From NCBI GenBank assembly GCA_947627955.1, contig CANQXZ010000001.1, positions 120,477 through 184,476 of the forward strand: a DNA stretch of 64,000 bases, written 5' to 3'. Both the position numbers and the translations under genes were made by a program. The DNA comes from an uncultured Clostridia bacterium (lineage in GTDB: Bacteria; Bacillota; Clostridia; Christensenellales; Borkfalkiaceae). Below are positions 43,541 through 64,000 of the stretch, in pieces. The first letter of the stretch is position 1; every line of letters begins with the position of its first letter. The notes below the pieces were generated by a model, which had not been told where the DNA came from, did not search any database, and was given only the letters and a program-made list of their open reading frames with translations.

Positions 43541-43735
43541 TCATTCTTCATCCTTTGCTTTGCTGATAAGCTTTATGGTAACGCTACCATCTTGTATATT
43601 TAATAAATATCGCCTATGACATTTATCACATTTAATTACACCATCTACGATCACGGCTGCATGTATAAGCAATTTATCACATTTTGGGCAGTGTATATAA
43701 CTCTTGTCATCTGAAGGTGCAATAATGTGTTCCAA
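43541..43735 (-). CDS. cysteine-rich KTR-type zinc-ribbon protein (Tn916 orf6-like)
   Basis: 64 aa with CPKCDK...CDKCHRRY (two CxxC pairs), like the small KTR proteins next to tet(M) in Tn916-family elements. Confidence 0.65.
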   Translation of the reverse strand: MEHIIAPSDDKSYIHCPKCDKLLIHAAVIVDGVIKCDKCHRRYLLNIQDGSVTIKLISKAKDEE

Positions 43736-43778
43736 TTAAATATCCTCTTGTGTTTTATAATTATATTTCATTATTTAA

Positions 43779-44699
43779 CTATTTTGATAATATAAACCTC
43801 ATTAGCATTGCTATTAATATAAAAATGAAGTTAGTAATAACCATAATGGGGAATAATATAACTAGCAGTAAAAATATAACACAACTGAAGATTATCGCTA
43901 CAGTCATTAACCCAATAATAGATAAATATAAAAAATACCTTTGAATTGAAAATAAGCGATATCCTCCAGCCATGCCAATATTGCTTTTCCCTAATGCAAA
44001 GTTCTCTGCCCATATACCATTAATGTATGACACAATCGTGGTCAAGTATCCTTTCATAGCCAGTGGGAATTCTGATAGTTTGGCAGTCATAGAAAAATCA
44101 AAGCTACAAAAAATGTTTGGTTTGCCAGAAAACGCCACTTTAAGATTCCTTATTGTTGCAACGATACCATAAAGAAGACAAACCAACAACATAAGCACAC
44201 AAAATAGCAGAATTAATAAAAAAGCCGTCCCAAAAAATGCAAGTAGTAACCCACCTTGAATAATAATGATAGCAAAAATAAGTGCTGTACCAAAGATAAG
44301 AGTTGCTGGTGCAACCATAAGCCACATCCATTTGCGGAACGATAATATTCGATAGCTGTGCGACTTAGTTACTGCATTACGTGCAATAACGAAGTTATCC
44401 AAAAATGCGTTTCTTGATGTCTCTTTATACAATGTAAACCATTTTAATAGAATTGTTGCAAAAACATTCCTTGCTGTTACTGTACCCAACCCTTTTGCTG
44501 CCGAAACAAAACTTTTAATATAGATGTAAATCGAATATGCTAATCCGACTGCAGCACCTATACTTAAAAAAATGATAAGACCTATATATCCGACATAAAA
44601 GAAAATTACAGCAAAAAAAGCGGCAAAAATAAGGAAAATAAGAAAACTTCCCAACACATCCACCATCGTTACTGCATACCCAGGTCTTCTCCAAATCAT
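43779..44699 (-). CDS. polytopic membrane protein, unknown function
   Basis: 306 aa with about 7 hydrophobic helices and no recognisable motif. Confidence 0.6.
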   Translation of the reverse strand: MIWRRPGYAVTMVDVLGSFLIFLIFAAFFAVIFFYVGYIGLIIFLSIGAAVGLAYSIYIYIKSFVSAAKGLGTVTARNVFATILLKWFTLYKETSRNAFLDNFVIARNAVTKSHSYRILSFRKWMWLMVAPATLIFGTALIFAIIIIQGGLLLAFFGTAFLLILLFCVLMLLVCLLYGIVATIRNLKVAFSGKPNIFCSFDFSMTAKLSEFPLAMKGYLTTIVSYINGIWAENFALGKSNIGMAGGYRLFSIQRYFLYLSIIGLMTVAIIFSCVIFLLLVILFPIMVITNFIFILIAMLMRFILSK

Positions 44700-44722
44700 A
44701 AGTTAACCTACCTTTGTGAAAA

Positions 44723-45067
44723 CTAAAATAGTGCTTTTAAAATGCATTGATATTCGTCCACATCCACATTAATTAACGACTTTTTGCCATCCGTAAATTC
44801 AATTGAAATCATATATCGTTTGACTGTAGAGCTCGAAGAAACAGACGCAAACATCCCAACTGCCCCAAAAACAGCACCGCCGACCGCTCCTTTTAAAAGA
44901 GTCTTCCAAAATGGATGTGTTTCAATATCGTTAATGATTTCGTAATTAGCAATGTTTGTTTTATTGACTGCAATTCTTTTTAGGTGATGCATAAAAAAGA
45001 GTTTGTTTCTATATGCTATTACGTCATAATTTACATAGTCACCCGCTATAACTTTACTTTTGCTCAT
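44723..45067 (-). CDS. small protein with a glycine-zipper TM segment, unknown function
   Basis: 114 aa with a central GAVGGAVFGAVGMFASV segment. Confidence 0.5.
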   Translation of the reverse strand: MSKSKVIAGDYVNYDVIAYRNKLFFMHHLKRIAVNKTNIANYEIINDIETHPFWKTLLKGAVGGAVFGAVGMFASVSSSSTVKRYMISIEFTDGKKSLINVDVDEYQCILKALF

Positions 45068-45083
45068 TAATGTGCCCCAATAT

Positions 45084-46091
45084 CTACCAACATATAAAAA
45101 CCATCTTATCCTTTATTGAAATGGACATCTGCAATGATTTATCTGTTGCATTCAATACCATCTTGCAAGCATTACTAATGCTTTGCATTAACTCACTATC
45201 ATTTATTGGAATATGCGAATAAAAATTAAAAGAATGCTTATCTGCAATAATACTAGCCTTCAGCTCATGTTTGAATTCATACAGCGATGATATCGTTTTT
45301 TCGGTGTGAAGGCTATCAATATTGCTGGCTTGCATTTGTTGAGAGCAATGGCTCCAAGTAGAATCGCAACGTGGCGTAGTTTTTCTGTCCCATTGGTGAT
45401 TAACCGCAATCTCTTCGTCAGTATAATTTAAATACAAATAGCTAAATGGTTTATACTTTTTTAAGTTTGCACCGAGCATAAAAGTTGCATCAAGATGATA
45501 AGTTTTATTATCTATCCATACTATATTCCAAGAATGAGGTCCACTCATCCCAGTATTATTATCAGTTGCCTCGCCATTAACAACTATAGATTCAATTCCT
45601 ATCCAACTAAGAACTAGCTTAACGGCCTTTGCAATACCACTACATTGACCTTTATTACTAGCAAGAACCGATGCGGCATTCTGATTATATTGATTATTAA
45701 TTTCATAGGTTGTATGTTGAAGCACATAGTCACAAACGGTACACACCTTTTTATAGTCACTTACACCTTTGGGTATATATGTGATTATTTCTGATTTTAC
45801 CCTGTCAATTTCCGTATTAATATTCCTAATTTGAAGTCGGTTATAAATATTATGTATGATTAACTCTGTGCAAAAACCTTGTAACCCGAAGTGTTGTGAG
45901 ATTTGCGGATTGAAAGGTATATGATAAAGTTCAGGATGGTCATTGTTTATAGCGACATAGATTTCAGATATTTCATGCGGAGCAAGACCATTGCAAAATA
46001 CGTGCTCTTTATATTTAGAGAATGCCTCACACATGTTCTCGTAATATTTCCTCTGATTGAGCGTTAATTTCATTTTCCAATATTCTTGCAT
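45084..46091 (-). CDS. transglutaminase-like cysteine protease superfamily protein
   Basis: 335 aa. The Cys-His-Asp arrangement is GQCSGIAKAV, GPHSWNIVWI and YHLDATF. Confidence 0.75.
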   Translation of the reverse strand: MQEYWKMKLTLNQRKYYENMCEAFSKYKEHVFCNGLAPHEISEIYVAINNDHPELYHIPFNPQISQHFGLQGFCTELIIHNIYNRLQIRNINTEIDRVKSEIITYIPKGVSDYKKVCTVCDYVLQHTTYEINNQYNQNAASVLASNKGQCSGIAKAVKLVLSWIGIESIVVNGEATDNNTGMSGPHSWNIVWIDNKTYHLDATFMLGANLKKYKPFSYLYLNYTDEEIAVNHQWDRKTTPRCDSTWSHCSQQMQASNIDSLHTEKTISSLYEFKHELKASIIADKHSFNFYSHIPINDSELMQSISNACKMVLNATDKSLQMSISIKDKMVFICW

Positions 46092-46163
46092 ATATTATTC
46101 TCCAATGCGCCAAACAAATTAATTTTTTAAGTAAAGGAATAATCCACCCAACTTGCTAATTGA

Positions 46164-47576
46164 CTATATTTTCCTGCCCCACTTGTTTTTTAAATTAATT
46201 GATGCACTGGCTTTATCAATAACCCATAGAATTGGATCCTCAACACCTACTGGCTTAAATGGACTTCCATCAGCCACATGGCCTAACGCACTACAGGTGA
46301 AGAACTGCATGCTTTTAAATTTTGATTTTAAACCATTTAAAAAGTTTTCCTCTTCATAATTAATTAAGAATTGTTCACAAACTCTATTTGTTGCTTCATA
46401 CGCAGAACTTATATGATTTAGTTGCATATAGTTTCGCACGGCAGTAGCACCAATTATTTCATCAAGTCCAGGTATATCGCATTTTGTAAATACTATAGCG
46501 ACATCAGCCTTAACAATGTTTTTGGATGTTAGGCAATGCATATTTTCAAGAGTTGTTATAAGTATACTTAATATATCGTCTAATTCATTTTCACTTGCAC
46601 CGTATTTAGAAAGATTTATTTTACGTTTTATTTCATTCCGATATTTGCGCACTGAAAGCGGATCAATAACTATTAAAAATGCATTCGCATATTTATATCC
46701 AATTTGTGAACCAATCTCTTTCAAGCTACCATAAGCTTCACCAGCTATATCGCATAACGAAATTAGATTATTTAACTTTTGCCCAGGTGGAGTTAAATAA
46801 AACTGATAATATTTTAATCTTAAATCTGCTGTTTTTATTGGCAATAAGCCTTTAGACATATTTAATTTAATATCATGAAAATCGTCATCGACTATTGTTG
46901 GATAACTAAAATCTAAACCATTAGGTTTTGAGGTTTTTTCAATTTGTGAAATAGCCATTCCAATAAAGCATGTCTTGCCAGCTTTTGCTCCTCCTATAAT
47001 TGGAATTAAAATTTCTTTATGTTTACCTCCATCTTTGAGTTTGGTTGAGCATTCAGGACAAATTGCAGTTAATTTTTGACGTCCGTTAAAAAAAGTTGTT
47101 GGAATTTTAGTCCCACATTGACATTTTCTTAGCAAAACGCCATATTTACTCGGACTTAAATTGCTATGAATTACCCCACATTTAGGACACGAATATGCCG
47201 GAAGGTTTAGTTTGCGTTGGCAAATTGGGCAAAATGACTCAATACCTATAGCTTTGCAATAAATTAAATCAACTAAATGCAAGATTAGACTTGCTAAAAT
47301 TGTGAATAGAGAGGCAACTGCTCCCCCTAATAAAGTAATTGAAAAAAAACTTATAAAGATTACTAGCAAAAATAGTGTTATTATAGAAAAAACTGGGATA
47401 TCACAAATTATTGATAAAATTACAATAAACGCATTATCACTAAATGTATCCTTAAATCTATTTACTTCATTTACAAATGGTTTAAATATTTTTTCTAATG
47501 ATAATTTAATTTTATTGTATGTATTAATGTAAAAATCACCAAGGAAATAATTATTATGCGCCGGTTGTATTTTCAT
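46164..47576 (-). CDS. membrane-anchored double-zinc-ribbon P-loop GTPase (paralog 2)
   Basis: 470 aa with N-terminal TM helices and CPICQRK..CPKCG..CQCG..CPECS ribbons. G1 is GGAKAGKT (46997-46968 region), G3 DIAGE, G4 TKCD and G5 CSALG. Confidence 0.75.
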   Translation of the reverse strand: MKIQPAHNNYFLGDFYINTYNKIKLSLEKIFKPFVNEVNRFKDTFSDNAFIVILSIICDIPVFSIITLFLLVIFISFFSITLLGGAVASLFTILASLILHLVDLIYCKAIGIESFCPICQRKLNLPAYSCPKCGVIHSNLSPSKYGVLLRKCQCGTKIPTTFFNGRQKLTAICPECSTKLKDGGKHKEILIPIIGGAKAGKTCFIGMAISQIEKTSKPNGLDFSYPTIVDDDFHDIKLNMSKGLLPIKTADLRLKYYQFYLTPPGQKLNNLISLCDIAGEAYGSLKEIGSQIGYKYANAFLIVIDPLSVRKYRNEIKRKINLSKYGASENELDDILSILITTLENMHCLTSKNIVKADVAIVFTKCDIPGLDEIIGATAVRNYMQLNHISSAYEATNRVCEQFLINYEEENFLNGLKSKFKSMQFFTCSALGHVADGSPFKPVGVEDPILWVIDKASASINLKNKWGRKI

Positions 47577-47586
47577 ATATCACCCA

Positions 47587-49032
47587 CTAATACTTTTTCT
47601 TTACACTAATAATATAATTAATCACACCGTAAGCAATAAGGGATAGAACAATAGCCCCTAAAATAATCCATACCCAAATCATTGTATCGAAAATTTCTAA
47701 ACTGCTAGAAAAATATGGTGTAGGATACCCATGTGATGTATCTTTCCAATTTGCAAAAGATTTTGGTAAATCAGTGCTAGTTACATTCTGCTCAGGCAAG
47801 GTATATATCCCTTCTACTTCGTTTGAATTATTGCCAATAATATTGCAACTGCTAGGCACTATATAGCAGTCGCTGAACTGAGCGGAATCAACAAAAGCAG
47901 TTAACTCCCCAACATACCTTAAACATTTGCCGTTTGATATTCCGGAGCATTCAGCATATACTAAACATGAATTAATAGTTGAATTTTTTACTCTACCAAC
48001 CAAGCCTCCTATTACTTGAAATGGTGTTCCACAGAGAGATGTTTTGGTTAAATCTGATTGTACTCTGCTTCCATAGGTGACACAGTTCTCAATTATTCCA
48101 TCCTCAGAATATCCAACAATACCACCACACAATGTTCCAAATGCACTTTTACCTGATACCCCATCCCCAAAAACGCTAAATCTATTTTTTAAGTAAATAG
48201 ATTGATCTATTATCGAATTATCAATTCCATTGTAATATTCACAACCAGAAATTAAACCTCCTTTATTTAGCCCAACAAGTCCACCAATATAAATATTGCT
48301 AACTGACCTATTACCTCCCATTACTATATCTTCTCGGATACCGGCATTCCATGCTTGATAACAATTTATAATGCTACAATTTAAAATCTCATTATAGTTA
48401 TAGCCAGCAATTATTCCAAAAGCGTTCGTTGAGCTGTTGGAAAAATTGAATTCACAAGATTCAAATCGCAAATTACAAATTTTTCCGTAATTGGAGCCAA
48501 CCAAGCCAAAACCCGAACTAGAATCTTTAACATTTGAAATTTTAAGATTTTTTATTGTATGTCCGTTGCCATCAAAAGTCCCATAATAATTCTGCAATTG
48601 TCCTAACCACGTGGGATTTTGCCCTTCAAAATCAATGTCGCTTTCTAAACAGTAATCTAATTTATCAGCATACGGTAAATTGCAAATTACATTAAATTCT
48701 TGAGAAGACTTAATATAAATTGTCCGCTTAGGAATTGTAGTTAAGCATATTATCATCATTGCAATAGCTATTAGAGTCAAAACTATAGTTGAGATAAACA
48801 TTATGATTTCTACTATGCCTTCACGGTCACTTGTATCCGGGAAAAAAGTAGCGGATAAATAAAATATAACCATACCAATAATCAATACAACACTTACTGG
48901 TATGAATATCCCTAAGATTCCACCAAAATGAATGCCTCCAAAAATTAGCGCAGGGCGAACCAAAGCAATTGCCATAACTATTATCATAGCAATAGGTGGA
49001 ATTAAAAATAGTTCTTTAATAGTCTTGATCAT
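47587..49032 (-). CDS. membrane protein with GLUG-repeat ectodomain
   Basis: 481 aa with about 3 N-terminal TM helices and one C-terminal TM helix. Five GLUG-like repeats: GLVGSNYGKICN, GIIAGYNYNEILNC, GGLVGLNKGGLISGC, GGIVGYSEDGIIENC and GGLVGRVKNSTINSC. Confidence 0.7.
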   Translation of the reverse strand: MIKTIKELFLIPPIAMIIVMAIALVRPALIFGGIHFGGILGIFIPVSVVLIIGMVIFYLSATFFPDTSDREGIVEIIMFISTIVLTLIAIAMMIICLTTIPKRTIYIKSSQEFNVICNLPYADKLDYCLESDIDFEGQNPTWLGQLQNYYGTFDGNGHTIKNLKISNVKDSSSGFGLVGSNYGKICNLRFESCEFNFSNSSTNAFGIIAGYNYNEILNCSIINCYQAWNAGIREDIVMGGNRSVSNIYIGGLVGLNKGGLISGCEYYNGIDNSIIDQSIYLKNRFSVFGDGVSGKSAFGTLCGGIVGYSEDGIIENCVTYGSRVQSDLTKTSLCGTPFQVIGGLVGRVKNSTINSCLVYAECSGISNGKCLRYVGELTAFVDSAQFSDCYIVPSSCNIIGNNSNEVEGIYTLPEQNVTSTDLPKSFANWKDTSHGYPTPYFSSSLEIFDTMIWVWIILGAIVLSLIAYGVINYIISVKKKY

Positions 49033-49055
49033 ATATTTTTCTTATGGATTGTTAG

Positions 49056-50531
49056 TTATATTTTTCTGCCCCACTTCTTTTTTAGATCAATAGAAGCACT
49101 TGCTTTATCAATAAGCCACAATGCTGGCTCTTCAACACCATCAGGATTAAATTGACTGCCATTTTCAACGTGACCTAGCGCACTGCATGTAAAAAATTGA
49201 ATACTTTTAAATTTAGACTTTAAGCTATTTAAGAAGTTATCCTCCTCATATTCAATCAAAAACTGCTCACAAACTTTATTTATGGCCTCATACTTTGATT
49301 TCATATTATGAATTTGCATATACTTGCGTATAGCTTCATTACCGATTTTTTCATCAAGCCCAGGAATATCGCATTTTGTAAATACAACAGCAACATCTGT
49401 CTTAATCATGTTCTTTGGCGTTAGGCAATTCATATTTTCTAGCGTTTTAATAAGTACATCAAGTACTTCATCCATTCCGCGTTCGCTAGCGCCATATTTA
49501 GATAAACTAATTTTACTTTCAACTTCATCTCTATACCTTCTTAAAGAAAGCGGATCTACGACCATAAGGAAGGCATTTGCATATTTATAACCGATTTGTT
49601 TTCCAATCTCGCTATTGCTTTCATAGGCTTCACCTGCGACATCGCAAATAGATATTAAATTTTTTACCTTTTCTCCGTGGGGTGTAAGATAAAACTGATA
49701 ATATCTCATTCTTGTATCGTTAGTTTTTTCAGGTAGTCTACCGTCACCCATATTACGTTTATTGTTCTCATAATCATCACCTAAAGCCAAATTAGGTTTA
49801 TACTCAAAGTCCAACCCATTTTCGGAAGCATTTTTTTCGATTTGAGAAATTGCCATGCTAATATAACACGTTTTCCCGGCACTTGGTCCCCCAACAACAG
49901 GAATGGGAATATCTACTTGAAGCGGACCACCGAGCTCATATCCACACTTTGGACATACCCATTTACCAGATTGTTTGTGCCTGCCATTAAAAAATGTAGT
50001 TTTAAGTTTGCGACCACATTCACATTCACGCCTTAAAACTCCATATCTGCTAGGAGCAAGTAAAGAATGTTTTGCGCCACAAGTGCATATGTATGCTGGC
50101 AAAGCATATCTTTCTTGACAATTAGGACAACTTGTCGAAATTTTTTTAATACTTCTGTAAATCCAATCAAAAAACGCAATGATTAAGTATAAAATATAAA
50201 ATATTGTCATGAAAATCAGCAACACAATAGCTTGTACAACAGAAATAATTGCACAAGGAACTGGTGTTAAGATAGTGCTTAACAATAGCCAACCGAAGGA
50301 TAGCCCAAACATAAACATGGCCGCAACAGCTTTAAAAAAGCTAGCGAAAGGTTCATATAATGTGACAACATTTTTTACATTTCTTCCTAGTTTTCTTAGA
50401 GCTGATAAAACTGAATATGCACTTTTACTGATTATTCTGCCACACTGGATAAAAGTATTTGCAATTGTCTTTCCAAATTCTATATATCCATCTCTAAAGA
50501 AATAATTAATTTTTGCTGGCTGCTTTTCCAT
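49056..50531 (-). CDS. membrane-anchored double-zinc-ribbon P-loop GTPase (paralog 1)
   Basis: 491 aa with N-terminal TM helices and CPNCQER..CTCG..CECG..CPKCG ribbons. G1 is GGPSAGKT (49895-49866), G3 DVAGE, G4 TKCD and G5 CSALG. Confidence 0.75.
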   Translation of the reverse strand: MEKQPAKINYFFRDGYIEFGKTIANTFIQCGRIISKSAYSVLSALRKLGRNVKNVVTLYEPFASFFKAVAAMFMFGLSFGWLLLSTILTPVPCAIISVVQAIVLLIFMTIFYILYLIIAFFDWIYRSIKKISTSCPNCQERYALPAYICTCGAKHSLLAPSRYGVLRRECECGRKLKTTFFNGRHKQSGKWVCPKCGYELGGPLQVDIPIPVVGGPSAGKTCYISMAISQIEKNASENGLDFEYKPNLALGDDYENNKRNMGDGRLPEKTNDTRMRYYQFYLTPHGEKVKNLISICDVAGEAYESNSEIGKQIGYKYANAFLMVVDPLSLRRYRDEVESKISLSKYGASERGMDEVLDVLIKTLENMNCLTPKNMIKTDVAVVFTKCDIPGLDEKIGNEAIRKYMQIHNMKSKYEAINKVCEQFLIEYEEDNFLNSLKSKFKSIQFFTCSALGHVENGSQFNPDGVEEPALWLIDKASASIDLKKKWGRKI

Positions 50532-50550
50532 TATTAATTCCTCATATGTC

Positions 50551-50862
50551 TTATATGTACATTAAAACTAGTCTGTAAATTTCGTAAGCAACAGGGGCAA
50601 TAATTGCCAAAACAACTAACCCTATCACAATAAATAAGGCTACTTTCATATAAATATTACTTACGCTATGATTAATTCCAACCACACTATTTTTAATGGC
50701 GGAAACTAATCCGACAAAAATGCTTATAAACAAACCTATTACAAGTGATCCAACAAAAACCACTACTACGGTTGCAATTAGTATTGCTAATATTTGCAAC
50801 CCTAAGTACAGGAAGAATAATCCTCCTAGACAGCTACCTACTCCATCATCATCATCTGACAT
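50551..50862 (-). CDS. small three-TM membrane protein with acidic N-terminus
   Basis: 103 aa, MSDDDDG followed by three hydrophobic helices. Its start lies 5 nt downstream of the stop of the 894-aa gene. Confidence 0.5.
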   Translation of the reverse strand: MSDDDDGVGSCLGGLFFLYLGLQILAILIATVVVVFVGSLVIGLFISIFVGLVSAIKNSVVGINHSVSNIYMKVALFIVIGLVVLAIIAPVAYEIYRLVLMYI

Positions 50863-54738: not shown

Positions 54739-55479
54739 TTATCGATTAACTGATTGGACCCATTGACGATCTCGCTTATTTTCTTCATCTTGTGCCTGAA
54801 TTTCTTCTTCAGTAGCACCTCTTTCTCTCATACTTTCGATTTTTTTATCTCCCTGATATTTAATCAAGTCAATCTCATCTTGCTTCACTTGCTTTGTATA
54901 TTTCTCTGAAGCAATTCTATCTTCATCACTGATACTTTTGCCTTTGGCTTCACGTTCCGCTAATTTTTCATTGATTTTATTTCGCATATCAATGTCATGC
55001 GATTGCAAATCAACTTTTTCTTGATGAACAGTATCTCGAAATTCAATCCCTTCTTCCTTCATCTGATAGCTTAGCTGCTCTTGTGATGCAATATTTTTTT
55101 CATATTGCGCTCTTAATGAGTCAAATGTCTTTGAATCACCACGTTCAACAGCTTTTGCCATATCTCTAGAAATAGCCTCATTTTTTGCATCAAGCTGCTC
55201 ATAAGCCTGCTTTTTTTGTTCGCCGAAAAATTGAAGCCTTTGCTGATTATTCATATCCCACATCTTACTTTTTTGTTCATCAATCGCCATTTCAGCTTTT
55301 TCGTAATCGCGGGAATTGGGGTCTATTTTTTTTAGTTCCTCTTCCTGTGCCTCAATATTTTTTTTATAATCTTGAGTGGCCGCATATGCTTCCGGAGCAT
55401 TACGGCTAGCCATGGCAGAGTTCCAACGTCTCTCATATATTTCGGAATATTTCTGATATTCTTTCATCTTATTTGTCAT
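54739..55479 (-). CDS. highly charged coiled-coil protein, unknown function
   Basis: 246 aa, rich in K, E, Q and D throughout. No TM helices or enzymatic motifs. Confidence 0.6.
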   Translation of the reverse strand: MTNKMKEYQKYSEIYERRWNSAMASRNAPEAYAATQDYKKNIEAQEEELKKIDPNSRDYEKAEMAIDEQKSKMWDMNNQQRLQFFGEQKKQAYEQLDAKNEAISRDMAKAVERGDSKTFDSLRAQYEKNIASQEQLSYQMKEEGIEFRDTVHQEKVDLQSHDIDMRNKINEKLAEREAKGKSISDEDRIASEKYTKQVKQDEIDLIKYQGDKKIESMRERGATEEEIQAQDEENKRDRQWVQSVNR

Positions 55480-55491: not shown

Positions 55492-56691
55492 TTAAAATAC
55501 ATTTAATCTAGTATGCTCGTTCGTCTTCTTTGAATAATAAATTGCCTGATTTTCCGGAAGTTGCGCAAATACATCGGGTAAATATACACGTTCCTTCTCA
55601 GTTGTAATCGATGTACTACTTTGCTTACTAGCACCACCTCTTCCATTTAAGCGATCCCAAAATGTTGGATTACTTACTCCTTTTGTTACAGTTTCTTTTT
55701 GTCTTTCATATGTACCAAAAAATTCTGAACAAAATTCCTTATTCTTGTTAGAGTTCTGTTTAAAGAAAAAATAACTGTCGGCATACTCGATCCACTCATT
55801 AGACTGTTCAATTAAGTTACTCAAATCTTGTATAGTATATAAAACATTGCAACTCTTTCCACCCTTTATAAGCTTCTGTATCCCAGAAGCAATTAATATA
55901 TCATTAGGTGTTCCATCAACAAGCACATTAACACTAGACACACTTGACGTGGCAACATTAAAACGCCCTATTGCATCTATAATAGCTGACATAATAAGAA
56001 TGGACTCCTCATGTTTTGCAGAAAAGTCTAAGCTTATTTCTATAATTGGTTTGCTCTTAAAAATCTGTTCTAAGCTCTTGTTTCCTGATAATACATAGCC
56101 AGAAACATTATTTGCAAAATCATAGAAATATGCCTCAAGTTCTCGAATTTCAGCCCTAATGCTATTTAAGAACCGATCATTTCTAGCCTGCTCAACACCA
56201 GTACTATATTTCATATTAAGATCTTCAATTTCTTCAATAGGAAAATCCAACAAATTATTTATTTTAACTGTTTTACCAGCTTTTTTAGCAAGATTTCTAA
56301 GAAGTGATATATAATTCTGAAAGCTCATTCTTTTGCTTTTATCAACTTCGTTATACATATCAAAAAGCTTGATAATATAAGCATTAATATCTGTATCAGT
56401 CATACCTGAGAAAATATCAATTTGCTCAGTTGTACTATTATCTGTGCAATCAACATCAAATATTAATCTGCTTGATGTTGTAATTGAAGGATATGATGAA
56501 AGCCCTGCTACTTGATCACGAAATATAATTACACCATATCCTCTGTTTATAGAGTCAATAGCATAATTTCTCATAATAACTTCTGCCCCTTGTTTTGAAG
56601 CGCCAGAAATTAATACATTTCCTAATGATGCATCAAGTGAAATTGTTCGACTACTTTTTGTAGCACCTCTAATAAAGTTTAATAATCCCAT
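55492..56691 (-). CDS. TraD/VirD4-like (FtsK-HerA superfamily) paralog with degenerate Walker motifs
   Basis: 399 aa, alignable by eye with the upstream ATPase. VLISGASKQGAE replaces LIGGIGSGKT and VLVDGTPND replaces FVCDEFKLLP. The C-terminal YTIQDLSNLIEQ region is conserved. Confidence 0.55.
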   Translation of the reverse strand: MGLLNFIRGATKSSRTISLDASLGNVLISGASKQGAEVIMRNYAIDSINRGYGVIIFRDQVAGLSSYPSITTSSRLIFDVDCTDNSTTEQIDIFSGMTDTDINAYIIKLFDMYNEVDKSKRMSFQNYISLLRNLAKKAGKTVKINNLLDFPIEEIEDLNMKYSTGVEQARNDRFLNSIRAEIRELEAYFYDFANNVSGYVLSGNKSLEQIFKSKPIIEISLDFSAKHEESILIMSAIIDAIGRFNVATSSVSSVNVLVDGTPNDILIASGIQKLIKGGKSCNVLYTIQDLSNLIEQSNEWIEYADSYFFFKQNSNKNKEFCSEFFGTYERQKETVTKGVSNPTFWDRLNGRGGASKQSSTSITTEKERVYLPDVFAQLPENQAIYYSKKTNEHTRLNVF

Positions 56692-56709
56692 GCTTCCACC
56701 GTTTTGTAC

Positions 56710-58053
56710 TTATTTACGTGATTTAAATTCGCTAAAACCAAATTTAAATGGTTCAGCACTATTAATTGAAATTATAGCTTCACCAAGTTTTAGGTTGGCA
56801 ACATCCCAGTCTTCGACAACATGTGCTGTCGCAATAGTTTCTTGTACTGTTGTTGACTTATATGTAGTACATTTTCGATTTTCGCCTGACCGCTCTTTAA
56901 TGTAATTGCGAGTCGAATAATCACTAACCTTAAAAGCAAATAAATTTAGAAATCCAGAGAAAATGTTTTTTGCCATGTTTTCTCCATAAATTTCAATTAT
57001 TTGATCAACATTCTGGACACCTATCATGAATTTAATGCCTAAACTTCTACCAAAATTAACAGCATCATCAATATGTTGCAAGTTGGGTAGAAGTTTAAAT
57101 TCATCACATACGAAAAACACATTGCCATCGCTTTTTGAGCGGCATAAGGCTTCTTTTATTGCCAAATCAAATAATAAACTGTAAATAGGTGTCAACATAC
57201 CGCCAATGCCAATGTCATATTCAATAAATATTTTTTTACCACCCTTATTCCGTACTAATTCACGAATTGAAAGAGTCCCTCTTTTTGCAAAATTTCCCAC
57301 AAAAACAGACCTAACCACTTGCTGAAGTTCTGCTAAAACGCCAAGTGCTTGCCCCATTGCATCCAATGGTATATAGCTCTTCATTGCAGCGAAATTATTG
57401 TACATACTAAGAATACTATGATACCACTGAATATTCTCTTTCTTCATAGCTTCAGAAATAGTATAATTATCGCTTTGTACTGTTCCTCTCCCTTTCATCA
57501 ATACAAAATGATATAGTATAGCGGACATTATGTCTTTAGCTGCTTGAGGGAAAAAAGCATTATCGCCTGCTTTTTTCAATTTGTCGGCAAATAATGAATT
57601 TGATATCTCGATTACATCTTCTTTTAAACCAACAGAGCTATCCAGCTCATTAATGATGTTCCAATAATCAGTTCCAGTGCTACCACATGCAGAGGAATCG
57701 TTGCTAATCACTACGTCGCCTGGTCTATAGAACTCTTTATAAAAGTCTCCTTTAGTATCGAAAATAATCATTACATCACTAGATGACAATTGCGGTACTA
57801 TATTTTGAAGTATTTGATTGAATGTATTAGTTTTACCTGAGCCTATCCCTCCAATAAGCATAAGATGTTGACTTAAAAGTTTTTCAGTCAAAACAAATCT
57901 ATCATTAGCACCATTTCCATTCTTTCCATTAAAAACGATATTGATTGGATGTGGGCATTGCGGTGATGACTGTTGCATAGTTTGCGCCGCTAACGGGACA
58001 TTCAAATTAAGTTCCTGTCCTTCACATACTCGCACTGTCGTCTGGGCCATCAT
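56710..58053 (-). CDS. TraD/VirD4 (type IV coupling protein)-like P-loop ATPase without TM anchor
   Basis: 447 aa with Walker A GGIGSGKT (57852-57829), IIFDTKGDFYKEFY, Walker B FFVCDEF and GVQNVDQIIEIYGENMAKNI. Confidence 0.75.
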   Translation of the reverse strand: MMAQTTVRVCEGQELNLNVPLAAQTMQQSSPQCPHPINIVFNGKNGNGANDRFVLTEKLLSQHLMLIGGIGSGKTNTFNQILQNIVPQLSSSDVMIIFDTKGDFYKEFYRPGDVVISNDSSACGSTGTDYWNIINELDSSVGLKEDVIEISNSLFADKLKKAGDNAFFPQAAKDIMSAILYHFVLMKGRGTVQSDNYTISEAMKKENIQWYHSILSMYNNFAAMKSYIPLDAMGQALGVLAELQQVVRSVFVGNFAKRGTLSIRELVRNKGGKKIFIEYDIGIGGMLTPIYSLLFDLAIKEALCRSKSDGNVFFVCDEFKLLPNLQHIDDAVNFGRSLGIKFMIGVQNVDQIIEIYGENMAKNIFSGFLNLFAFKVSDYSTRNYIKERSGENRKCTTYKSTTVQETIATAHVVEDWDVANLKLGEAIISINSAEPFKFGFSEFKSRK

Positions 58054-58829
58054 GATCTTTTGATTCCCCCTGAATTGTTTTGTCCACTTAGTTCATTAGA
58101 TTTTGACACACCATTCAATCCAATATCCTGCATATTGACATTGTTTCTATTTTGATTCTGTAATTTAGCATAATCTTCAGAAACTTGTTTATCAATGTCT
58201 TTTGATGGCGAAGCAGTATAATGAAATCTTTCATTAGCCTGTTTATCGTAAAGTTCTATGTATTTTACTTCTTCCTCAGAATTTACTATACCTTTGGCAC
58301 CAACATATACTGATGTACACTCCATCACATTGCCTGTGTTGGGATTTTTAATTCCATTAAATTTTTCATAAAGTTCTGGACGATCCATTTTCTTTACTTC
58401 TTTAATTTCTGTATAGAACTCTCTTTTCAACTTTCTATCGTCCATATACATACTTCCGGGAATTCGGGTTCTTTCAGTTCCTGCCCTCATATTGTAATTT
58501 TCTCTTATAACGTTTGCACGCTTTTCCCGCAAGTCATCATGCGCTTGCGATAAAATATCATCATAAGATGTTCCCTTATATGAACAAGCATAATCTCCAT
58601 GCTTGTCTTCAAAATCCATCCCTACAATCTGTCTGTTCTTGTTGTCATCATAAATCCATACTCTCGTAGCCGTGAGTACACCATCCTTGCCTGGACGAGG
58701 ATCTCTAATTGTTGTATCAATATGACCATTAGCACTCTCTATGATATTTTCATGTGAAGAACCAATGCCATTATAACTATAACAACCCATTTCGGAATCG
58801 GATAATGGTGATTCATAATAATAAGCCAT
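58050..58829 (-). CDS. hypothetical protein, translationally coupled to the TraD-like ATPase
   Basis: 259 aa with no recognisable motif. Its stop overlaps the downstream ATG (ATGA at 58050-58053). Confidence 0.6.
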   Translation of the reverse strand: MAYYYESPLSDSEMGCYSYNGIGSSHENIIESANGHIDTTIRDPRPGKDGVLTATRVWIYDDNKNRQIVGMDFEDKHGDYACSYKGTSYDDILSQAHDDLREKRANVIRENYNMRAGTERTRIPGSMYMDDRKLKREFYTEIKEVKKMDRPELYEKFNGIKNPNTGNVMECTSVYVGAKGIVNSEEEVKYIELYDKQANERFHYTASPSKDIDKQVSEDYAKLQNQNRNNVNMQDIGLNGVSKSNELSGQNNSGGIKRS

Positions 58830-58869
58830 TGCTATCCCCCTTTTTTTAATTATAAATTATAAAGAACCT

Positions 58870-61800
58870 CTACAGTTTTACCACTTCTTTAAGATGAACT
58901 AAATTTGTTTCCTCATTTAGAAATAGAGCATATTTCATATTGGCAGCAGCTGGATTTACCATTATTGAGACTTTTGCTGTATATTTTTTTGATAATAATC
59001 CTTTTTTTAAAACTATTTTATCAATACGCTCACATAGCTTACCAGCATTTTTGTTCATAGGGCGTGGATAACCTTGCATAATAAGAAGTTTTGGAATCTC
59101 AGTTGCTTTATCAGATTCGAATGTGATATTAATCTTAAATGGTTTAATTGTTGATACTACATAATCAATGCTATATAATACCGTAATAGCCTCTCTATAA
59201 TCAATTGGCGGTTCAAGCTTAATTGCAGGCGAATAAGAAATGTTCCCATCTTCTTTGAATGCAACGAAAATGGTTATATAATTTACGGTATCTGTTTTAA
59301 GCTTGATTTCAAATTTACCACTTTTAGAAAAATCTTCGACCTTATAAGAGAATTTCTCTCCACCCCCATCGATATTTTCTATGTATCGATCATGCCCAAT
59401 TCTAACAATAATAGATTGTGCCTTGGGGTGTAGTGCGCCACTTACGGTAACTGTTCCATTATTAATGGAATGCGTTAGCTTTTTAATTCCCTCAATTGTG
59501 TTAATAAGGCGCGGTGGAGATACAACAAAAAGTTGCTCTGTACTTACAATAGGATAAACATAAAATATATTGCCAGCCGATAATGAAAAAATTATTTCGC
59601 CATTCGCATTAGCTGAAGATTCTATTTGAGCCAATCCCTTGCAAATTGAGTTGAAATCTAAATACTTGAGTGGTGTATTTGTAGGAATTGATAGTTTCTT
59701 GTTAGAAACATATAACTTCACTTTCCCAGCATAACCTGTAGCGCAGGTGAATACATATCTATTTGATTCAATTGGCTCTATCCTTACATCTTCAAGTGGA
59801 GTGGCTTTTTCGTAAGGCTTAAATACCGCGCAAATTCCGCGCGACTGGACAAGTTTACCCTTTAAATCATAATTACAAATAACAAGATATGCACTTTGTC
59901 CGTCGCATTTATTATCGGTAAAACCATTTAAAGAACATTCAACCCGAACACCTTCGCCTGAACGAGTAGGTGCTATTGTGCCGCTGTTTTTCCATACATC
60001 AATTGATTTTACATTTTGAGGAGCTTCCCAAATAACCTTAATACCACCGTCAACAACTTCCTGTTGCATGTTTGAAACATCAGCAAAAATAATCGCTGAT
60101 TCGCTTGTGACTGCAATTGAAGATTTTACCCCGTACCGCTCAACAAAAACAGCATAATAATACGGTGTAGCAGATACAATATTTACATCTTCAAAAAATT
60201 TAACTGAAAGACCACAATCTACAAGGGCACCATCTTCAGCAGAGATTGGAGCAACACCTATTTTCTTGATTATAGTGTAAGAAATAAATTCCTGTTTTGC
60301 ATTATCATCCCACTCTAAACGTACCTTTCCTTTTTCAGTAGTAATACGAAGGTTGGTTACTGCTTGGGGTGGGATCTTCTGCATTATTTGGCGAGCATCA
60401 GCATTATCATCACAGATATCAATTGCTTTTGCTGCAGTTGAAATTGCAAGCGATATATTACCTTGAGCCAAATACTGTTTTGCGGCATCAACTTGTCGTT
60501 GAGCATTTTGTACAACGGCAGAAATATCTGACACCAATTTGCGTGAATTATCAATATTGTAAGTGCTATATTTTACATTTAATGATTTAGCAATAGCTAG
60601 AGCTGATTGATAACAACGCTTAGCTATCATTTGTTGAATCTTTGAAACGTCTTCTTTATACTTAGCGCCTGTCGTTTCCTCTTGTCGTACTCTTGACTGA
60701 ATAACACTCTCATATTCTGCAACTTTTTTTGCTACGGTTGAATCAGCATGAGTAGCGTAATTGGGAACAACGTTTTTTACCTCCAAAAATACCGATTGTA
60801 AATCGCTTATCTCTACCATCGGGCGACTTAAAAGTTTATCAATTTTTTCGCAACACTGATTAAACATATCGTGGGCACGATGTGTTGCACCACAAGTAGG
60901 GCAGCCTTTATCCTCTTTGGTAAAAGGTGTCTTCTGTTTGCAGTTCCAACAAATGACTTCCAAAGGTTTCCCACAATGAGGACAACTCTTTGCACCCTTT
61001 ATATATAATTTTCCGCAATCCGGATAAGGACAAAATTCAAAGTTATTACCCTCCGTTTTCCCAACAATGGTGATTTGAAAGTATTTGCATCCTATGGCGA
61101 GAATTCTTTCCGCCTCATCAATTTGAACCTTTAAAAGTGCTATAACCGTGGAAGTATAATTTTTATACTCATCCATGGTCATTTCTTTAATGCCAAAAGA
61201 CTTCCTTTTCTCAAAATCACTCCACACGTCGTTTTTGAGAACAAGATATTGATCATAAGTTCTGCGTGCCTCCTTGCTATCCAAAAGTAATTTTTTTGCT
61301 GTAGCGCAAAGTTGACTAATAGCCTGTTTCCGCTTAAGGTCATTCGTCTTACTGCTGTCGCTATACATTTTATCTGAGGCTGCTTGTATTTCAGAATTAG
61401 ACGATGTGGATTGTACTCCTAAAAAATCATATAAATCTTTTTTCCCAAGAGTATCTAATCTCTTTTCTGTCTGTTGATAATCCGAGAATGGTATACTCGC
61501 ATCAATATTATCTATAATCTTAACACCCAACCCACTTAAATAGGAAATTGCATTTAACAGTTCTGCCTCAGAAAAAAAGATTATAGGCTTATTCGCTGTA
61601 TTGCAGATATCAATTACTTCACTTTTTAAAAGGGTTTTTCTTGTTTGACAAAGAATCTCAATTACACCAACGGCTTCTTTAAGTTTATATGCTTTGGCAT
61701 CCGCAGCTTCTTTGGCGCGCCCGCCTCGCTCAGGAATGTATTTTCCTGTGGCGGCATCATAAACGGAATCATTGCACATGATTTCGATGGCGTCTGTTTT

Positions 61801-61977
61801 TAGCTCAATCAGCCTTCGAGTCAATATGTCCCCCTTGGGACTCCCGGTAACTGTTTTTATTTTTGCATCAATTTTATTCTTGTCTGTTTCAGACAGATCA
61901 ATCTTAAAAGCAATGAAATAATTATATTCGGGATTTTTCAGCTCTTCTGCAGTTCTAAAGGGGCTAACCTGTGCCAT
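58870..61977 (-). CDS. 1035-aa multidomain protein: J-domain-like segment without HPD, double zinc ribbon, helical repeat, FN3/Ig-like beta domains
   Basis: KDLYDFLGV (61440-61414) ... EARRTYDQYL follows the J-domain helix I-IV pattern, but no HPD is visible. Also CPYPDCG..CPHCG..CWNCK..CPTCG ribbons, a TPR-like AKQYLAQGNISLAIS segment, and repeated V.L.W...... segments. Confidence 0.6.
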   Translation of the reverse strand: MAQVSPFRTAEELKNPEYNYFIAFKIDLSETDKNKIDAKIKTVTGSPKGDILTRRLIELKTDAIEIMCNDSVYDAATGKYIPERGGRAKEAADAKAYKLKEAVGVIEILCQTRKTLLKSEVIDICNTANKPIIFFSEAELLNAISYLSGLGVKIIDNIDASIPFSDYQQTEKRLDTLGKKDLYDFLGVQSTSSNSEIQAASDKMYSDSSKTNDLKRKQAISQLCATAKKLLLDSKEARRTYDQYLVLKNDVWSDFEKRKSFGIKEMTMDEYKNYTSTVIALLKVQIDEAERILAIGCKYFQITIVGKTEGNNFEFCPYPDCGKLYIKGAKSCPHCGKPLEVICWNCKQKTPFTKEDKGCPTCGATHRAHDMFNQCCEKIDKLLSRPMVEISDLQSVFLEVKNVVPNYATHADSTVAKKVAEYESVIQSRVRQEETTGAKYKEDVSKIQQMIAKRCYQSALAIAKSLNVKYSTYNIDNSRKLVSDISAVVQNAQRQVDAAKQYLAQGNISLAISTAAKAIDICDDNADARQIMQKIPPQAVTNLRITTEKGKVRLEWDDNAKQEFISYTIIKKIGVAPISAEDGALVDCGLSVKFFEDVNIVSATPYYYAVFVERYGVKSSIAVTSESAIIFADVSNMQQEVVDGGIKVIWEAPQNVKSIDVWKNSGTIAPTRSGEGVRVECSLNGFTDNKCDGQSAYLVICNYDLKGKLVQSRGICAVFKPYEKATPLEDVRIEPIESNRYVFTCATGYAGKVKLYVSNKKLSIPTNTPLKYLDFNSICKGLAQIESSANANGEIIFSLSAGNIFYVYPIVSTEQLFVVSPPRLINTIEGIKKLTHSINNGTVTVSGALHPKAQSIIVRIGHDRYIENIDGGGEKFSYKVEDFSKSGKFEIKLKTDTVNYITIFVAFKEDGNISYSPAIKLEPPIDYREAITVLYSIDYVVSTIKPFKINITFESDKATEIPKLLIMQGYPRPMNKNAGKLCERIDKIVLKKGLLSKKYTAKVSIMVNPAAANMKYALFLNEETNLVHLKEVVKL

Positions 61978-62005
61978 AATATACTCCTGTTTTATTGATT
62001 AGATT

Positions 62006-64000
62006 TTACTTTAAAGAATTGCCAACGACTTCTGTCGCAATAGATGATGCCACTTCTTTAAATGTGGCAGAAAGTTGACTCAAATCAACTTTCTTCCCTT
62101 TCCCACTGGAAATGCGACTGAGAAATGCCTCATCTGCATCACCAATGCCAATACCATAAATAATAATCCCGTCAGCTTTAGCTCGATCTGCAGCGGTTTC
62201 CTCTGTTGATTGATCATTCCAATATCCATCAGTAAGAACGACAATGACTCTTGGACAATCGCGTGTAAATTTCTTGTAATTATTGTTTATTGGCGTTTCT
62301 GCATTGCAATATCCAACATCATTAACATCAACGTCATCAATTGCATGATATAAGCGTCTCTCATCATTCTCCCATTTGCATTTATATTGTGAACGATCGG
62401 CAAAACTGATAACAGAAATGAAGACTCTGTTTAAGTCAAACTCCTTCACAAAATCCTTTGCTGCGCGTCGCGCTTCTCTAATTCTATTACCACTCATACT
62501 GCCAGAAGTATCTATCATTAGCATAATCTCAATTCTGCTTTTACGTTTTGCCTCCTCCTCTGCTTCTTTCTTTTCGCGCTCTAAACGTGCTATAATCTCG
62601 CTCATAGTTTCATTAGTATTCTCACGAGTAGATGATAAAACTATGCCATTATCCAAGCAAGCATTAACTTCAACAACACCATTTGAGTTATATAAAAAAT
62701 TAACTTTAATCTTGCTCTTATTGTCTTTTGGCATGCCAGTGATTGAATAAGCACCAATAATATCACACTCGTAAGGATCGCGAGCTTCTCCTTGCAAAAC
62801 ATACACTTGCAACTTCTCGCCTGAAAAAGTATATTCCCTACTAAACGGTTCATTGACCTTACTATTTTTTCTTATAATAATACTATTAATGTAGCTTTTT
62901 TCATCGCTTGCAAGCGCAAGCATGCCGAGACTATGTGCAGTAATATCTTGAATATCGCTATTGTGAATTGTAAGCGTAATCGGAGCCGTGGGCATAGAGG
63001 TACCGCTCGACTTGGCTGAATTGGCGGATGCAGAGCTTGCAACGGTTAACGTAATGGAATTACTCACGCAGAGTTCTGCTTGCATAGCTGCGCCTGTTGC
63101 TACTATCGTATCGACATTAATATCTTTTGTAATGGGCGGACGACCATATTCTTTGATTATCATGTCCTTGACTTGAGGCATTCTTGTTGAACCACCTACC
63201 AAAACGACTTCATCAATATTATTCCACCCAAATGGACGATTCTGGGCTTCACTAATTTCATCAAAGCAACTTTTTATCAACAGAATTGTTTCATATAGAA
63301 GACTATAGGTTTGATCATTAAAATCCTCTCGGGTAACAGTATATTTACCAAGATACCCATCGCATTGGATCGTAATAATAGTTGAAGCGACTGAGGAAAG
63401 TAACTTCTTGGCTTCCTCACACTTCACCTGTAATTCTTTAAGATCTTCTTCGTGGTCATCAATACTGACACCAAATTCAGAATAAAATTTCTCTTTAACT
63501 TGATTGATAAGCGTTTCGTCCCAGTCCTTTCCGCCCAATTGATGATTTCCGTTTGTTGCAAGAACATCAATTCGTGTTCCATTTACATTAGCAACTGTTA
63601 CATCAAATGTGCCACCACCGAGATCGTAGACAAGAACATTCTTTTCCTTACCACCTGTCAAGCCATATGCGATGATTGCCGAAGTAGGTTCATTGATTAT
63701 CTTTAAGACTTTTAACCCAGCCTTCTGACCGGCCCGAATTGTTGCTTCGCGTTGTTTATCATTAAAATAGGCAGGCACTGTAATAACCGCCCCATCAATA
63801 TCAATGCTATTGGTACTCTTTATGTCTTGAATAAGGTGTGCAAGATAAAGTCCCGACAACTCCTCAGCAGAATACTCCTGCCCATTTATGAAAGCACTCC
63901 AATTAGAATCGCCCATCATACTTTTATAAAAGGCAGCTGTATTAACATTGCCTGATTTTTGTTCATTCTTTGCATCTTCACCGACCATAATGCTTCCATT
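62006..64000 (-). CDS. Hsp70 (NBD plus SBD-beta) fused to a C-terminal vWA domain; N-terminus beyond the right edge
   Basis: AVITVPAYFNDKQREAT, IINEPTSAIIAYG, VYDLGGGTFDVT (about 63635-63601) and VVLVGGSTRMPQV. An SBD-like QVYVLQGEA segment, then vWA MIDAS MIDTSGSMSG (62518-62489). The reading frame stays open (NGSI) upstream of the listed Met. Confidence 0.9.
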   Translation of the reverse strand, partial: NGSIMVGEDAKNEQKSGNVNTAAFYKSMMGDSNWSAFINGQEYSAEELSGLYLAHLIQDIKSTNSIDIDGAVITVPAYFNDKQREATIRAGQKAGLKVLKIINEPTSAIIAYGLTGGKEKNVLVYDLGGGTFDVTVANVNGTRIDVLATNGNHQLGGKDWDETLINQVKEKFYSEFGVSIDDHEEDLKELQVKCEEAKKLLSSVASTIITIQCDGYLGKYTVTREDFNDQTYSLLYETILLIKSCFDEISEAQNRPFGWNNIDEVVLVGGSTRMPQVKDMIIKEYGRPPITKDINVDTIVATGAAMQAELCVSNSITLTVASSASANSAKSSGTSMPTAPITLTIHNSDIQDITAHSLGMLALASDEKSYINSIIIRKNSKVNEPFSREYTFSGEKLQVYVLQGEARDPYECDIIGAYSITGMPKDNKSKIKVNFLYNSNGVVEVNACLDNGIVLSSTRENTNETMSEIIARLEREKKEAEEEAKRKSRIEIMLMIDTSGSMSGNRIREARRAAKDFVKEFDLNRVFISVISFADRSQYKCKWENDERRLYHAIDDVDVNDVGYCNAETPINNNYKKFTRDCPRVIVVLTDGYWNDQSTEETAADRAKADGIIIYGIGIGDADEAFLSRISSGKGKKVDLSQLSATFKEVASSIATEVVGNSLK

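Follow-up and report, generated by a model that had tools for sequence, protein, structure and literature searches.

A probable GAP1-N2-type DO-GTPase system of the Hsp70/GrpE theme, with an optional pair of TrwB-like ATPases, in a low-GC element of a gut Clostridia genome

What might be the function of a dense gene array which combines chaperones, GTPases, a pair of ATPases resembling conjugation motors and several membrane proteins at the edge of a mobile element? This question is raised by a stretch of 64,000 nucleotides (nt) of contig CANQXZ010000001.1 (assembly GCA_947627955.1) from an uncultured Clostridia bacterium, hereafter the window, in which 16 open reading frames (ORFs), all on the minus strand, run from position 43541 to the window end. 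A first-pass annotation, made from the letters alone, had proposed the array as a candidate undescribed conflict or defence system. As analysed here, the locus is, with a probability of roughly 0.6, a GAP1-N2-type DO-GTPase system of the Hsp70/GrpE theme, i.e. a predicted nucleoside triphosphate (NTP)-gated conflict system, carried by a low-GC integrative element at the end that bears its recombinases.

GTPase-centric conflict systems of this kind were predicted computationally by Kaur, Burroughs, Iyer and Aravind (eLife 2020; PMC7159879), whose Table 1 places DO-GTPase/GAP1 systems in about 1,150 organisms. According to the text of that article, such systems are recognised by one or two paralogous DO-GTPases of the TRAFAC clade, usually with N-terminal zinc ribbons and always with a Walker-B glutamate, by a GAP1 protein encoded beside a GTPase, by a protein with fibronectin type III (FNIII) repeats (N2 type) and by many membrane components, among them a GTPase with N-terminal transmembrane helices. 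Its section 29 describes a 'second theme', which makes up ~14% of the GAP1-N2 neighbourhoods, in Firmicutes and Actinobacteria; here an HSP70 is joined by GrpE and by a further, truncated HSP70, and the protein with FNIII repeats carries a DnaJ or TPR fusion. The present locus is assigned to this family because three of its proteins match DO-GTPase2 and one matches GAP1-N2 above the curated Pfam cut-offs, with the hallmark motifs, an FNIII array, an Hsp70 and, in its relatives, a GrpE-like protein and an Hsp70 upstream; the resemblance to this work, to which the first-pass annotation had pointed, is thus borne out as far as the article's text goes. The proteins that define the family are the following.

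53601–54716, minus strand: DO-GTPase A, soluble, with two N-terminal zinc ribbons and a TRAFAC GTPase domain (Pfam DO-GTPase2, 9e-09, 35.8 bits).
50868–53552, minus strand: GAP1-N2 protein of 894 amino acids (aa) (Pfam GAP1-N2, 1.5e-15, 57.9 bits against a cut-off of 24).
49056–50531, minus strand: DO-GTPase B, with an N-terminal transmembrane (TM) region, zinc ribbons and a GTPase domain (Pfam DO-GTPase2, 1.7e-14, 54.5 bits).
46164–47576, minus strand: DO-GTPase C, a membrane-anchored paralogue of GTPase B (Pfam DO-GTPase2, 1.4e-10, 41.7 bits).

All three GTPases exceed the DO-GTPase2 cut-off of 27 bits and contain the motifs GxxxxGK[ST], DxxGE (which includes the Walker-B glutamate) and TKxD as well as CxxC pairs. 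In GTPase A, which is 51–85% identical across related loci, the motifs read GAKASGKS, DTAGE and TKID; in GTPase B (TM region at residues 65–125) they read GGPSAGKT, DVAGE and TKCD; GTPase C (TM region at residues 45–108) contains DIAGE and is 51% identical to GTPase B over the full length. The GAP1 gene, represented by 65 homologue clusters, starts 48 nt after that of GTPase A, and its product has a mean identity of 65% over residues 1–140 and of 27–37% over the remainder. The PDB contains no relative of GAP1, and among the structure databases searched there is no solved structure for GAP1 or the DO-GTPases.

The chaperone part of the locus is encoded by the first two genes of the array.

62006–64000, minus strand: Hsp70-vWA fusion, its 5' end cut by the window (Pfam HSP70, 3.7e-86; VWA, 1.8e-19).
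58870–61977, minus strand: giant protein of 1035 aa, a predicted scaffold or sensor (Pfam DZR, AlphaFold, Foldseek).

The Hsp70-vWA protein comprises a nucleotide-binding domain, a beta substrate-binding domain, a linker and a vWA domain with an intact metal ion-dependent adhesion site (MIDAS, DxSxS), and it carries the motifs DLGGGT and DTSGS; its full-length homologues have about 700 aa. In the giant, an N-terminal helical region is followed by a diverged J-like domain (residues ~181–242), a double zinc ribbon (~316–363), a TPR-like helical region and, at residues 541–1031, an array of about five FNIII-like beta-sandwiches. The whole protein has a sole Pfam match, to DZR (4.5e-05, below the curated cut-off); its TPR matches are weak, and fn3 is not detected by Pfam even on separate segments. 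An AlphaFold model built with 47 homologues (predicted local distance difference test, pLDDT, 89.2) contains a helical N-terminal half, zinc ribbons, helical repeats and an array of beta-sandwiches, and in Foldseek it is matched best by multi-FNIII fragments (3t1w of fibronectin, E 1.5e-10; 1fnf; 6tpw), with fibronectin and LAR on top. As modelled, the giant carries an FNIII array. As to its earlier description as J-like, residues 165–262 align with the full Pfam DnaJ profile (1–63 of 63), at an E-value of 0.003 and a score of 18 bits against a cut-off of 27.8, and the HPD tripeptide is replaced family-wide (MYSDSSKTND). The HPD motif is required for canonical stimulation of Hsp70.

Two observations concern variants of the giant. 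In four homologues (P0257, P0261, P0262 and P0263) the J-like and zinc-ribbon N-terminal part is kept (41–46% query coverage) and the FNIII half is swapped for BspA-type leucine-rich repeats (LRR), LRR_8 or Listeria-Bacteroides (Flg_new) repeats, which suggests, from sequence comparison, a role of the C-terminal half as a binding module that can be exchanged. In five loci an extra homologue of the N-terminal part, 240–500 aa long, lies directly upstream of the full-length gene (L005, 1692–2417; L012, 6224–7150; L027; L040; L043) and appears to be a duplicated helper or adaptor.

The extent of the operon was judged from the window and from its relatives, whose contigs were reached through homologues of GAP1 (65 clusters), of the second, inactive-looking ATPase described below (111) and of the giant (87); another 11 loci were taken from species genomes, all of them metagenome-assembled genomes of gut Clostridia, and 33 from metagenomes. 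The intergenic gaps of the array are 28, 40, −4, 18, 12, 22, 48, 5, 19, 23, 10, 72, 16, 23 and 43 nt, in exact agreement with the earlier reading of 16 minus-strand ORFs separated by −4 to 72 nt. That these make up the whole operon, as had been supposed, is not upheld. The frame of the Hsp70-vWA gene is open to base 64000, where it reads NGSIMVGEDAK, and the ATG at 63988 is therefore internal rather than a start; the Hsp70 profile match begins at profile position 88. Judging from the relatives, about 45–50 codons of this gene and at least two further genes would lie beyond the window. The operon is taken to have more than 16 genes because a GrpE-like gene, the first conserved gene, and a separate Hsp70 gene (~545 aa) precede the Hsp70-vWA gene in 22 of the 22 related loci whose sequence extends far enough upstream. 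The count of sixteen is a minimum.

The gene order is kept in about 40 loci of gut Clostridia, over a range of GAP1 identities from 55% down to 26%. The shared 5' part reads GrpE-like protein, Hsp70, Hsp70-vWA, giant, GTPase A, GAP1, small TM protein and GTPase B, and the shared 3' part consists of variable surface proteins and extra GTPases followed by a transglutaminase-like peptidase, a 114-aa protein and a polytopic membrane protein. Mere juxtaposition of the genes is rejected on this synteny, and the compared sequences indicate that the operon is a single conserved unit, which is also marked by the tiny gaps, by one terminator and by internal terminator-like sites that are not above chance (12 found against 10.1 expected in shuffled sequence). 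The clean terminator noted earlier is confirmed as a hairpin with a T-run.

43519–43542, minus strand: intrinsic terminator closing the operon, with a stem of 7–9 bp (4 G-C pairs), a 6-nt loop and a T-run directly 3' of the stop codon.

Several features of the relatives are of the kind seen in conflict-type evolution: the body of GAP1 evolves fast, surface proteins are swapped (for PPC-domain proteins), and the FNIII half is replaced by LRR, BspA or Flg_new repeats in some giants. The distribution is patchy, a pattern-limited scan of 185,579 species genomes having given 11 loci, and nothing conserved lies upstream of the GrpE-like gene, where different housekeeping genes flank the copy of each genome. 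As to the proposed test of co-occurrence, the order is kept and serine recombinases adjoin two relatives (L003 and L004); the upstream flanks examined in seven loci are not defence islands.

Some related operons embed stand-alone toxin domains of the HNH/EndoVII fold (GH-E, Tox-GHH; L005, 16993–17695; L006, 15326–16028; L021, 6509–7580), each preceded by an immunity gene (Imm33 with GH-E, SUKH with Tox-GHH). One pair is placed after the transglutaminase gene, and the SUKH and Tox-GHH genes of L021 occupy the slot upstream of the TrwB-like gene. A divergent clade of metagenome contigs from JGI (L026–L045 and L052), with a giant of ~35% identity, departs from the usual order (GTPase A, GAP1, GTPase B) in that GTPase B precedes GAP1, and its TrwB-like pair, when present, comes without the 259-aa and 246-aa genes of the cassette described next.

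Between the giant and GTPase A lies a cassette of four genes, built around two proteins of the fold of type IV coupling proteins.

58050–58829, minus strand: 259-aa protein with no recognised fold and no Pfam or PADLOC match, in a variable slot between the giant and the TrwB-like ATPase.
56710–58053, minus strand: soluble TrwB/VirD4-like P-loop ATPase (O04), with intact Walker A and B motifs.
55492–56691, minus strand: second TrwB-fold protein (O05), 399 aa, without the Walker A lysine (AlphaFold and Foldseek).
54739–55479, minus strand: charged, K/E-rich protein of 246 aa, the last gene of the cassette, with no family match.

O04 matches the Pfam families TrwB_AAD_bind (1.7e-39), T4SS-DNA_transf (1.7e-16) and TraG-D_C (1.5e-15) and, in the PDB, TrwB (5.8e-11); it contains the motifs GGIGSGKT and VFFVCDE and has no TM segment by hydropathy. 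O05 is linked neither to O04 nor to TrwB by pairwise BLAST, hhalign or PDB profile searches, and the relationship is resolved by structure prediction only: the AlphaFold model (51 homologues; pLDDT 85.5; predicted template modelling score, pTM, 0.81) matches TrwB (1e9s) in Foldseek over its full length (E 1.4e-11, 412 columns), followed by Cag-beta, DndH-C, HerA and VirB4. The motif G....GK[ST] is absent, with a family consensus of GNSxxGxE, and on the model O05 is predicted to be an inactive partner of O04. The earlier description of one intact and one degenerate TraD/VirD4-like protein is accordingly confirmed, by Pfam for the former and by AlphaFold and Foldseek for the latter. Every inspected locus among the 111 homologue clusters of O05 lies inside the GTPase system, and even the most distant homologue inspected (43% identity) adjoins a TrwB-like gene in a system of the same type.

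About 14 independent loci carry the cassette and about 26 do not, with both states found within one clade; by a rough heuristic, 8 of the 23 giant-bearing contigs of at least 40 kb are equal in length to a contig carrying a homologue of O05. ATPases of the O04 type are 66–82% identical across loci whose GAP1 proteins are only 27–42% identical. Of the flanking cassette proteins, that of 259 aa is 31–36% identical in related loci, and that of 246 aa, probably a coiled coil, is conserved (36–50% identity) only in loci with the full cassette. The closest plasmid homologues of O04 (34% identity, more than 90% coverage) are found on Paenibacillus pART37 (L022) and Curtobacterium pS16 (L023), 'non-mobilizable' megaplasmids of ~545 kb, amid small hypothetical genes and beside genes for a single-stranded DNA-binding protein (SSB), HNH and NlpC/P60 proteins; these two homologues are not in a GAP1 or GTPase-system context and offered no clue to function.

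The remaining genes of the array encode mainly membrane proteins and the conserved 3' module.

50551–50862, minus strand: small membrane protein of 103 aa with two long hydrophobic stretches, in the same position in L001, L003, L008 and L025.
47587–49032, minus strand: variable surface protein of 481 aa, with a repeat-rich ectodomain between three TM segments at the N-terminus and a single one at the C-terminus.
45084–46091, minus strand: Transglutaminase-core protein with a papain-like thiol peptidase fold (Pfam Transglut_core, 1.7e-09).
44723–45067, minus strand: 114-aa protein with a glycine-rich hydrophobic stretch (GAVGGAVFGAVGMFASV, as read from the sequence), which follows the transglutaminase gene in L011, L013 and L016.
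43779–44699, minus strand: polytopic membrane protein of 306 aa, a candidate terminal membrane effector, with hydrophobic blocks at residues 6–61, 124–186 and 254–306.
43541–43735, minus strand: 64-aa ORF with a four-cysteine zinc ribbon (weak sub-threshold Pfam zinc-ribbon matches), of uncertain membership.

The 481-aa protein has TM segments at residues 4–102 and 444–478. Its proposed GLUG ectodomain stands as a TM-flanked ectodomain with GGLVG-type (GLUG-like) repeats, though the Pfam Glug match is sub-threshold (E 0.095); in L001, L004 and L005 the same slot is occupied by PPC-domain proteins. In most loci the transglutaminase-like protein is conserved (27–52% identity) and encoded close to the operon's 3' end, and homologues of the 306-aa protein are encoded by the last conserved gene in L011, L012, L013 and L016. 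No homologue of the 64-aa ORF is detected in the related loci. Hydropathy identifies five membrane proteins (GTPases B and C and three further proteins), consistent with the four or five expected, and the Hsp70-vWA, GTPase, GAP1-like and transglutaminase-like labels of the first-pass annotation are all confirmed by Pfam.

The surroundings of the operon suggest a mobile element. The GC content is 0.30–0.39 over 38–64 kb versus 0.47–0.54 in the host part of the window, and downstream of the operon follow sigma-70 region 4 and HTH_16 genes, a DUF6870 gene, two large serine recombinases and a resolvase fragment, beyond which lie the host genes for a PBP5-type carboxypeptidase and a diaminopimelate decarboxylase-like protein.

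38011–39723: large serine recombinase gene, full-length.
39720–41468: second full-length large serine recombinase gene, overlapping the first by 4 nt.
37678–38001: N-terminal resolvase fragment of 107 aa, at the GC shift from ~0.35 to 0.5.

The region of the recombinases and the GC shift probably marks where the element ends on the left; the 107-aa fragment may be a remnant of a third recombinase. The earlier view of a low-GC element with serine recombinases is therefore retained, except that 'inside' the element claims too much, as only the recombinase end is visible and the far boundary lies beyond the window. Recombinases adjoin both the window's copy and the related loci L003 and L004. The GAP1 profile, run against the viral contigs of IMG/VR, gave no relative, and the system is therefore not regarded as phage-borne. 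A second, longer inverted repeat is located at 43239–43296 on the minus strand (GAGTTTGAGCA ... TGCTCAAACTC, with an inner AAGCC/GGCTT hairpin and then seven T). It follows the operon terminator at a distance of ~220 nt, precedes the sigma-70 region 4 gene by ~55 nt and may be a tandem terminator or a leader; it is absent from the output of the terminator scan because of its long loop. An Rfam search of the window gave no match.

From the anatomy and co-inheritance of the genes, which are observed, a mechanism may be proposed along the logic of Kaur et al. (PMC7159879). A complex would be held at the membrane by the TM-anchored GTPases and the surface proteins, and an invader or a perturbation of the envelope would be recognised by a binding module without enzymatic activity, be it the FNIII array, the ectodomain proteins or the rapidly diverging body of GAP1. 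The GTPase/GAP1 pair would act as a threshold switch, upon which the Hsp70, GrpE, J-like and vWA components would use ATP to remodel or release a client. The output may be provided by the peptidase and membrane proteins, or by the embedded HNH toxins in some relatives, and would damage the infected cell; where present, the TrwB-like heteromer might bind or pump incoming DNA or a protein client as an added sensing or effector arm. From the comparison of loci, we infer a defence function.

A bolder proposal, which we regard as tentative and rather doubtful, is that the soluble heteromer of an active and a dead TrwB-like protein, docked to the TM GTPases, is a coupling protein repurposed for immunity, which would capture DNA or pilot proteins from a phage or conjugation channel, or load HNH toxins, and then signal to the GTPase/GAP1 switch and the Hsp70-vWA machine. 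If true, this would be the first conjugation motor seen to sense invaders, and DO-GTPase systems would gain their first functional handle.

Several points weigh against the assignment to a conflict system. The J-like domain of the giant has no HPD, and within this clade the variability of the FNIII array does not markedly exceed that of the remainder of the giant, so that a sensor role of the array is weakened. The GrpE and the second Hsp70 of this element are inferred from its relatives, as the window ends inside the Hsp70-vWA gene. The upstream flanks in the seven loci are housekeeping genes, and no recognised nuclease, NADase or pore-forming effector domain is found in the window's locus. 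A comparison with PADLOC-DB v2.0.0 gave no complete system, in agreement with the earlier statement that named-system signatures are missing, and only HerA/mad8/DndH-type matches on O04 and a weak CARF-labelled match on GTPase A. In the literature searched there is no experiment on any DO-GTPase/GAP1 system and no description of these families beyond Kaur et al.

An unlikely alternative is that the locus is no conflict system at all and encodes an accessory envelope or cytoskeleton-like remodelling machine (for surface assembly, aggregation or differentiation) with GTPase switches and a dedicated Hsp70 set, which is spread horizontally. It would account for the many membrane and surface proteins, for the missing classical effector in the window and for the housekeeping flanks, which in L021 are cell-division genes (SepF, YggT), but fits poorly with a very patchy distribution and a genomic position that differs in every genome. 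The low GC content and the recombinase linkage here, with recombinase linkage again in L003 and L004, likewise speak against such a machine, as do the rapid divergence of GAP1, the wholesale swapping of surface and repeat modules and the toxin/immunity pairs embedded in relatives.

About equally unlikely is an apparatus for inter-bacterial antagonism or export, in which the TrwB-like pair would recruit substrates, either toxins or surface proteins, to a membrane conduit made of the polytopic and TM-anchored proteins (compare VirD4 of the X-type IV secretion system (X-T4SS) and EssC of type VII), the Hsp70/GrpE set would keep them unfolded and the GTPases would gate firing. About two thirds of the loci have no TrwB-like pair and keep all else, so that export by that motor is not the core function. 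The coupling-protein fold of both ATPases is compatible with export, yet neither is TM-anchored, and no VirB4, VirB6, EssB or WXG100-type components are found by Pfam. HNH polymorphic-toxin domains with immunity genes do occur in related operons, once directly upstream of the TrwB-like gene, but they are short, stand-alone and without a trafficking domain, and the window's own locus has no recognisable toxin. The several membrane and variable ectodomain proteins, and the envelope-proximal role stressed in the text of Kaur et al. (PMC7159879), would also suit this explanation.

That the TraD-like gene is the coupling protein for the transfer or mobilisation of the surrounding element, the other genes being unrelated cargo, is highly improbable and close to refuted on position, missing TM anchor and missing partners, for although O04 strongly matches T4SS coupling-protein families, its plasmid tblastn matches lie mostly on conjugative plasmids and the adjoining serine recombinases and sigma/HTH genes are typical of clostridial integrative elements, its gene lies mid-operon (gaps of −4 and 18 nt), keeps this position in loci without mobile-element context (e.g. 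L021, beside YggS, SepF and YggT), codes for a product without the TM domain that coupling proteins have at the N-terminus, always occurs together with a dead paralogue, homologues of which turned up only inside the GTPase system in the loci inspected, and has neither a relaxase gene nor any further T4SS gene beside it in the visible 26 kb of the element.

The GAP1-N2-type DO-GTPase reading is thus preferred, and under it the locus is a compact, mobile-element-borne and fully syntenic example from gut Clostridia with a defined parts list, in which the occurrence of the cassette in about a third of the relatives offers a natural on/off comparison for a conjugation-type motor. It opens testable questions, i.e. 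whether phages or plasmids are the target of a defence, what role the Hsp70, GrpE, J-like and vWA parts play and what the conjugation-type motor contributes. If the function is defence, a chaperone-driven, GTPase-gated immunity would be added to the bacterial repertoire; if it is not, a widely cited prediction would be corrected.

Among known systems, the HerA anti-phage systems (Sir2-HerA, DUF4297-HerA) and the PADLOC model mad8 resemble the cassette in that O04 gives weak HerA matches and a mad8 match with an E-value of 4.2e-17, which shows that known or candidate defence systems make use of soluble ATPases of the FtsK-HerA superfamily. The partner genes of these systems are all missing here, the fold match is closer to TrwB than to HerA, and the literature on the MADS/mad8 model yielded nothing related. 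In CoCoNuT operons, FtsK/HerA/VirB4-type ATPases are inserted next to vWA genes. Like the predicted vWA defence operons with which it was compared at the domain level, the locus pairs a chaperone ATPase with a vWA/MIDAS domain as a predicted switch and has a pumping ATPase of the FtsK-HerA superfamily as an optional extension beside vWA genes; unlike them, it uses Hsp70 instead of MoxR and a TrwB-like protein instead of EssC, VirB4 or SpoVK, and has no McrBC, HEPN or TerY-P components.

With the type IV coupling proteins TrwB, VirD4, TraD and Cag-beta, O04 and O05 share the fold, and O04 also the Walker A and B motifs and the TraG-D_C region. They differ in having no N-terminal TM anchor, in forming an active and dead pair and in being embedded in a GTPase/Hsp70 operon; O04 is only 25–34% identical to its best plasmid homologues, and Pfam finds no relaxase, VirB4-type ATPase or T4SS channel family among the proteins of 37.6–64 kb.

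The closest likeness is with the GAP1-N2 systems as described in the text of PMC7159879. Shared with them are zinc-ribbon DO-GTPases with the Walker-B glutamate, one soluble and the others TM-anchored, a GAP1 with the N2 domain beside a GTPase, many TM components and a Firmicute host; shared with the Hsp70/GrpE theme are an FNIII protein with a putative J-like domain (sub-threshold here) and a putative TPR-like region, an Hsp70 and a second, truncated one, of which the relatives show the stand-alone copy, and, again in the relatives, GrpE. On these points the coupling of Hsp70 and a J-like protein to the GTPase core, which the first-pass annotation took to be undescribed, is already published as a prediction. 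The locus departs from that text in that its second Hsp70 retains the beta substrate-binding domain and forms a fusion with a vWA/MIDAS domain, its J-like domain is without HPD, the C-terminal TM helix of some GAP1-N2 members is absent, and a conserved 3' module (transglutaminase-like peptidase, 114-aa protein and polytopic membrane protein) accompanies swapped GLUG-like and PPC surface proteins. The text of the article mentions neither the vWA fusion nor the 3' module, and its text and legends do not mention the optional active and dead TrwB/VirD4-fold pair, for which the earlier claim of an undescribed coupling therefore holds within these limits; the pair is likely to be a genuine addition to the GAP1-N2 systems.

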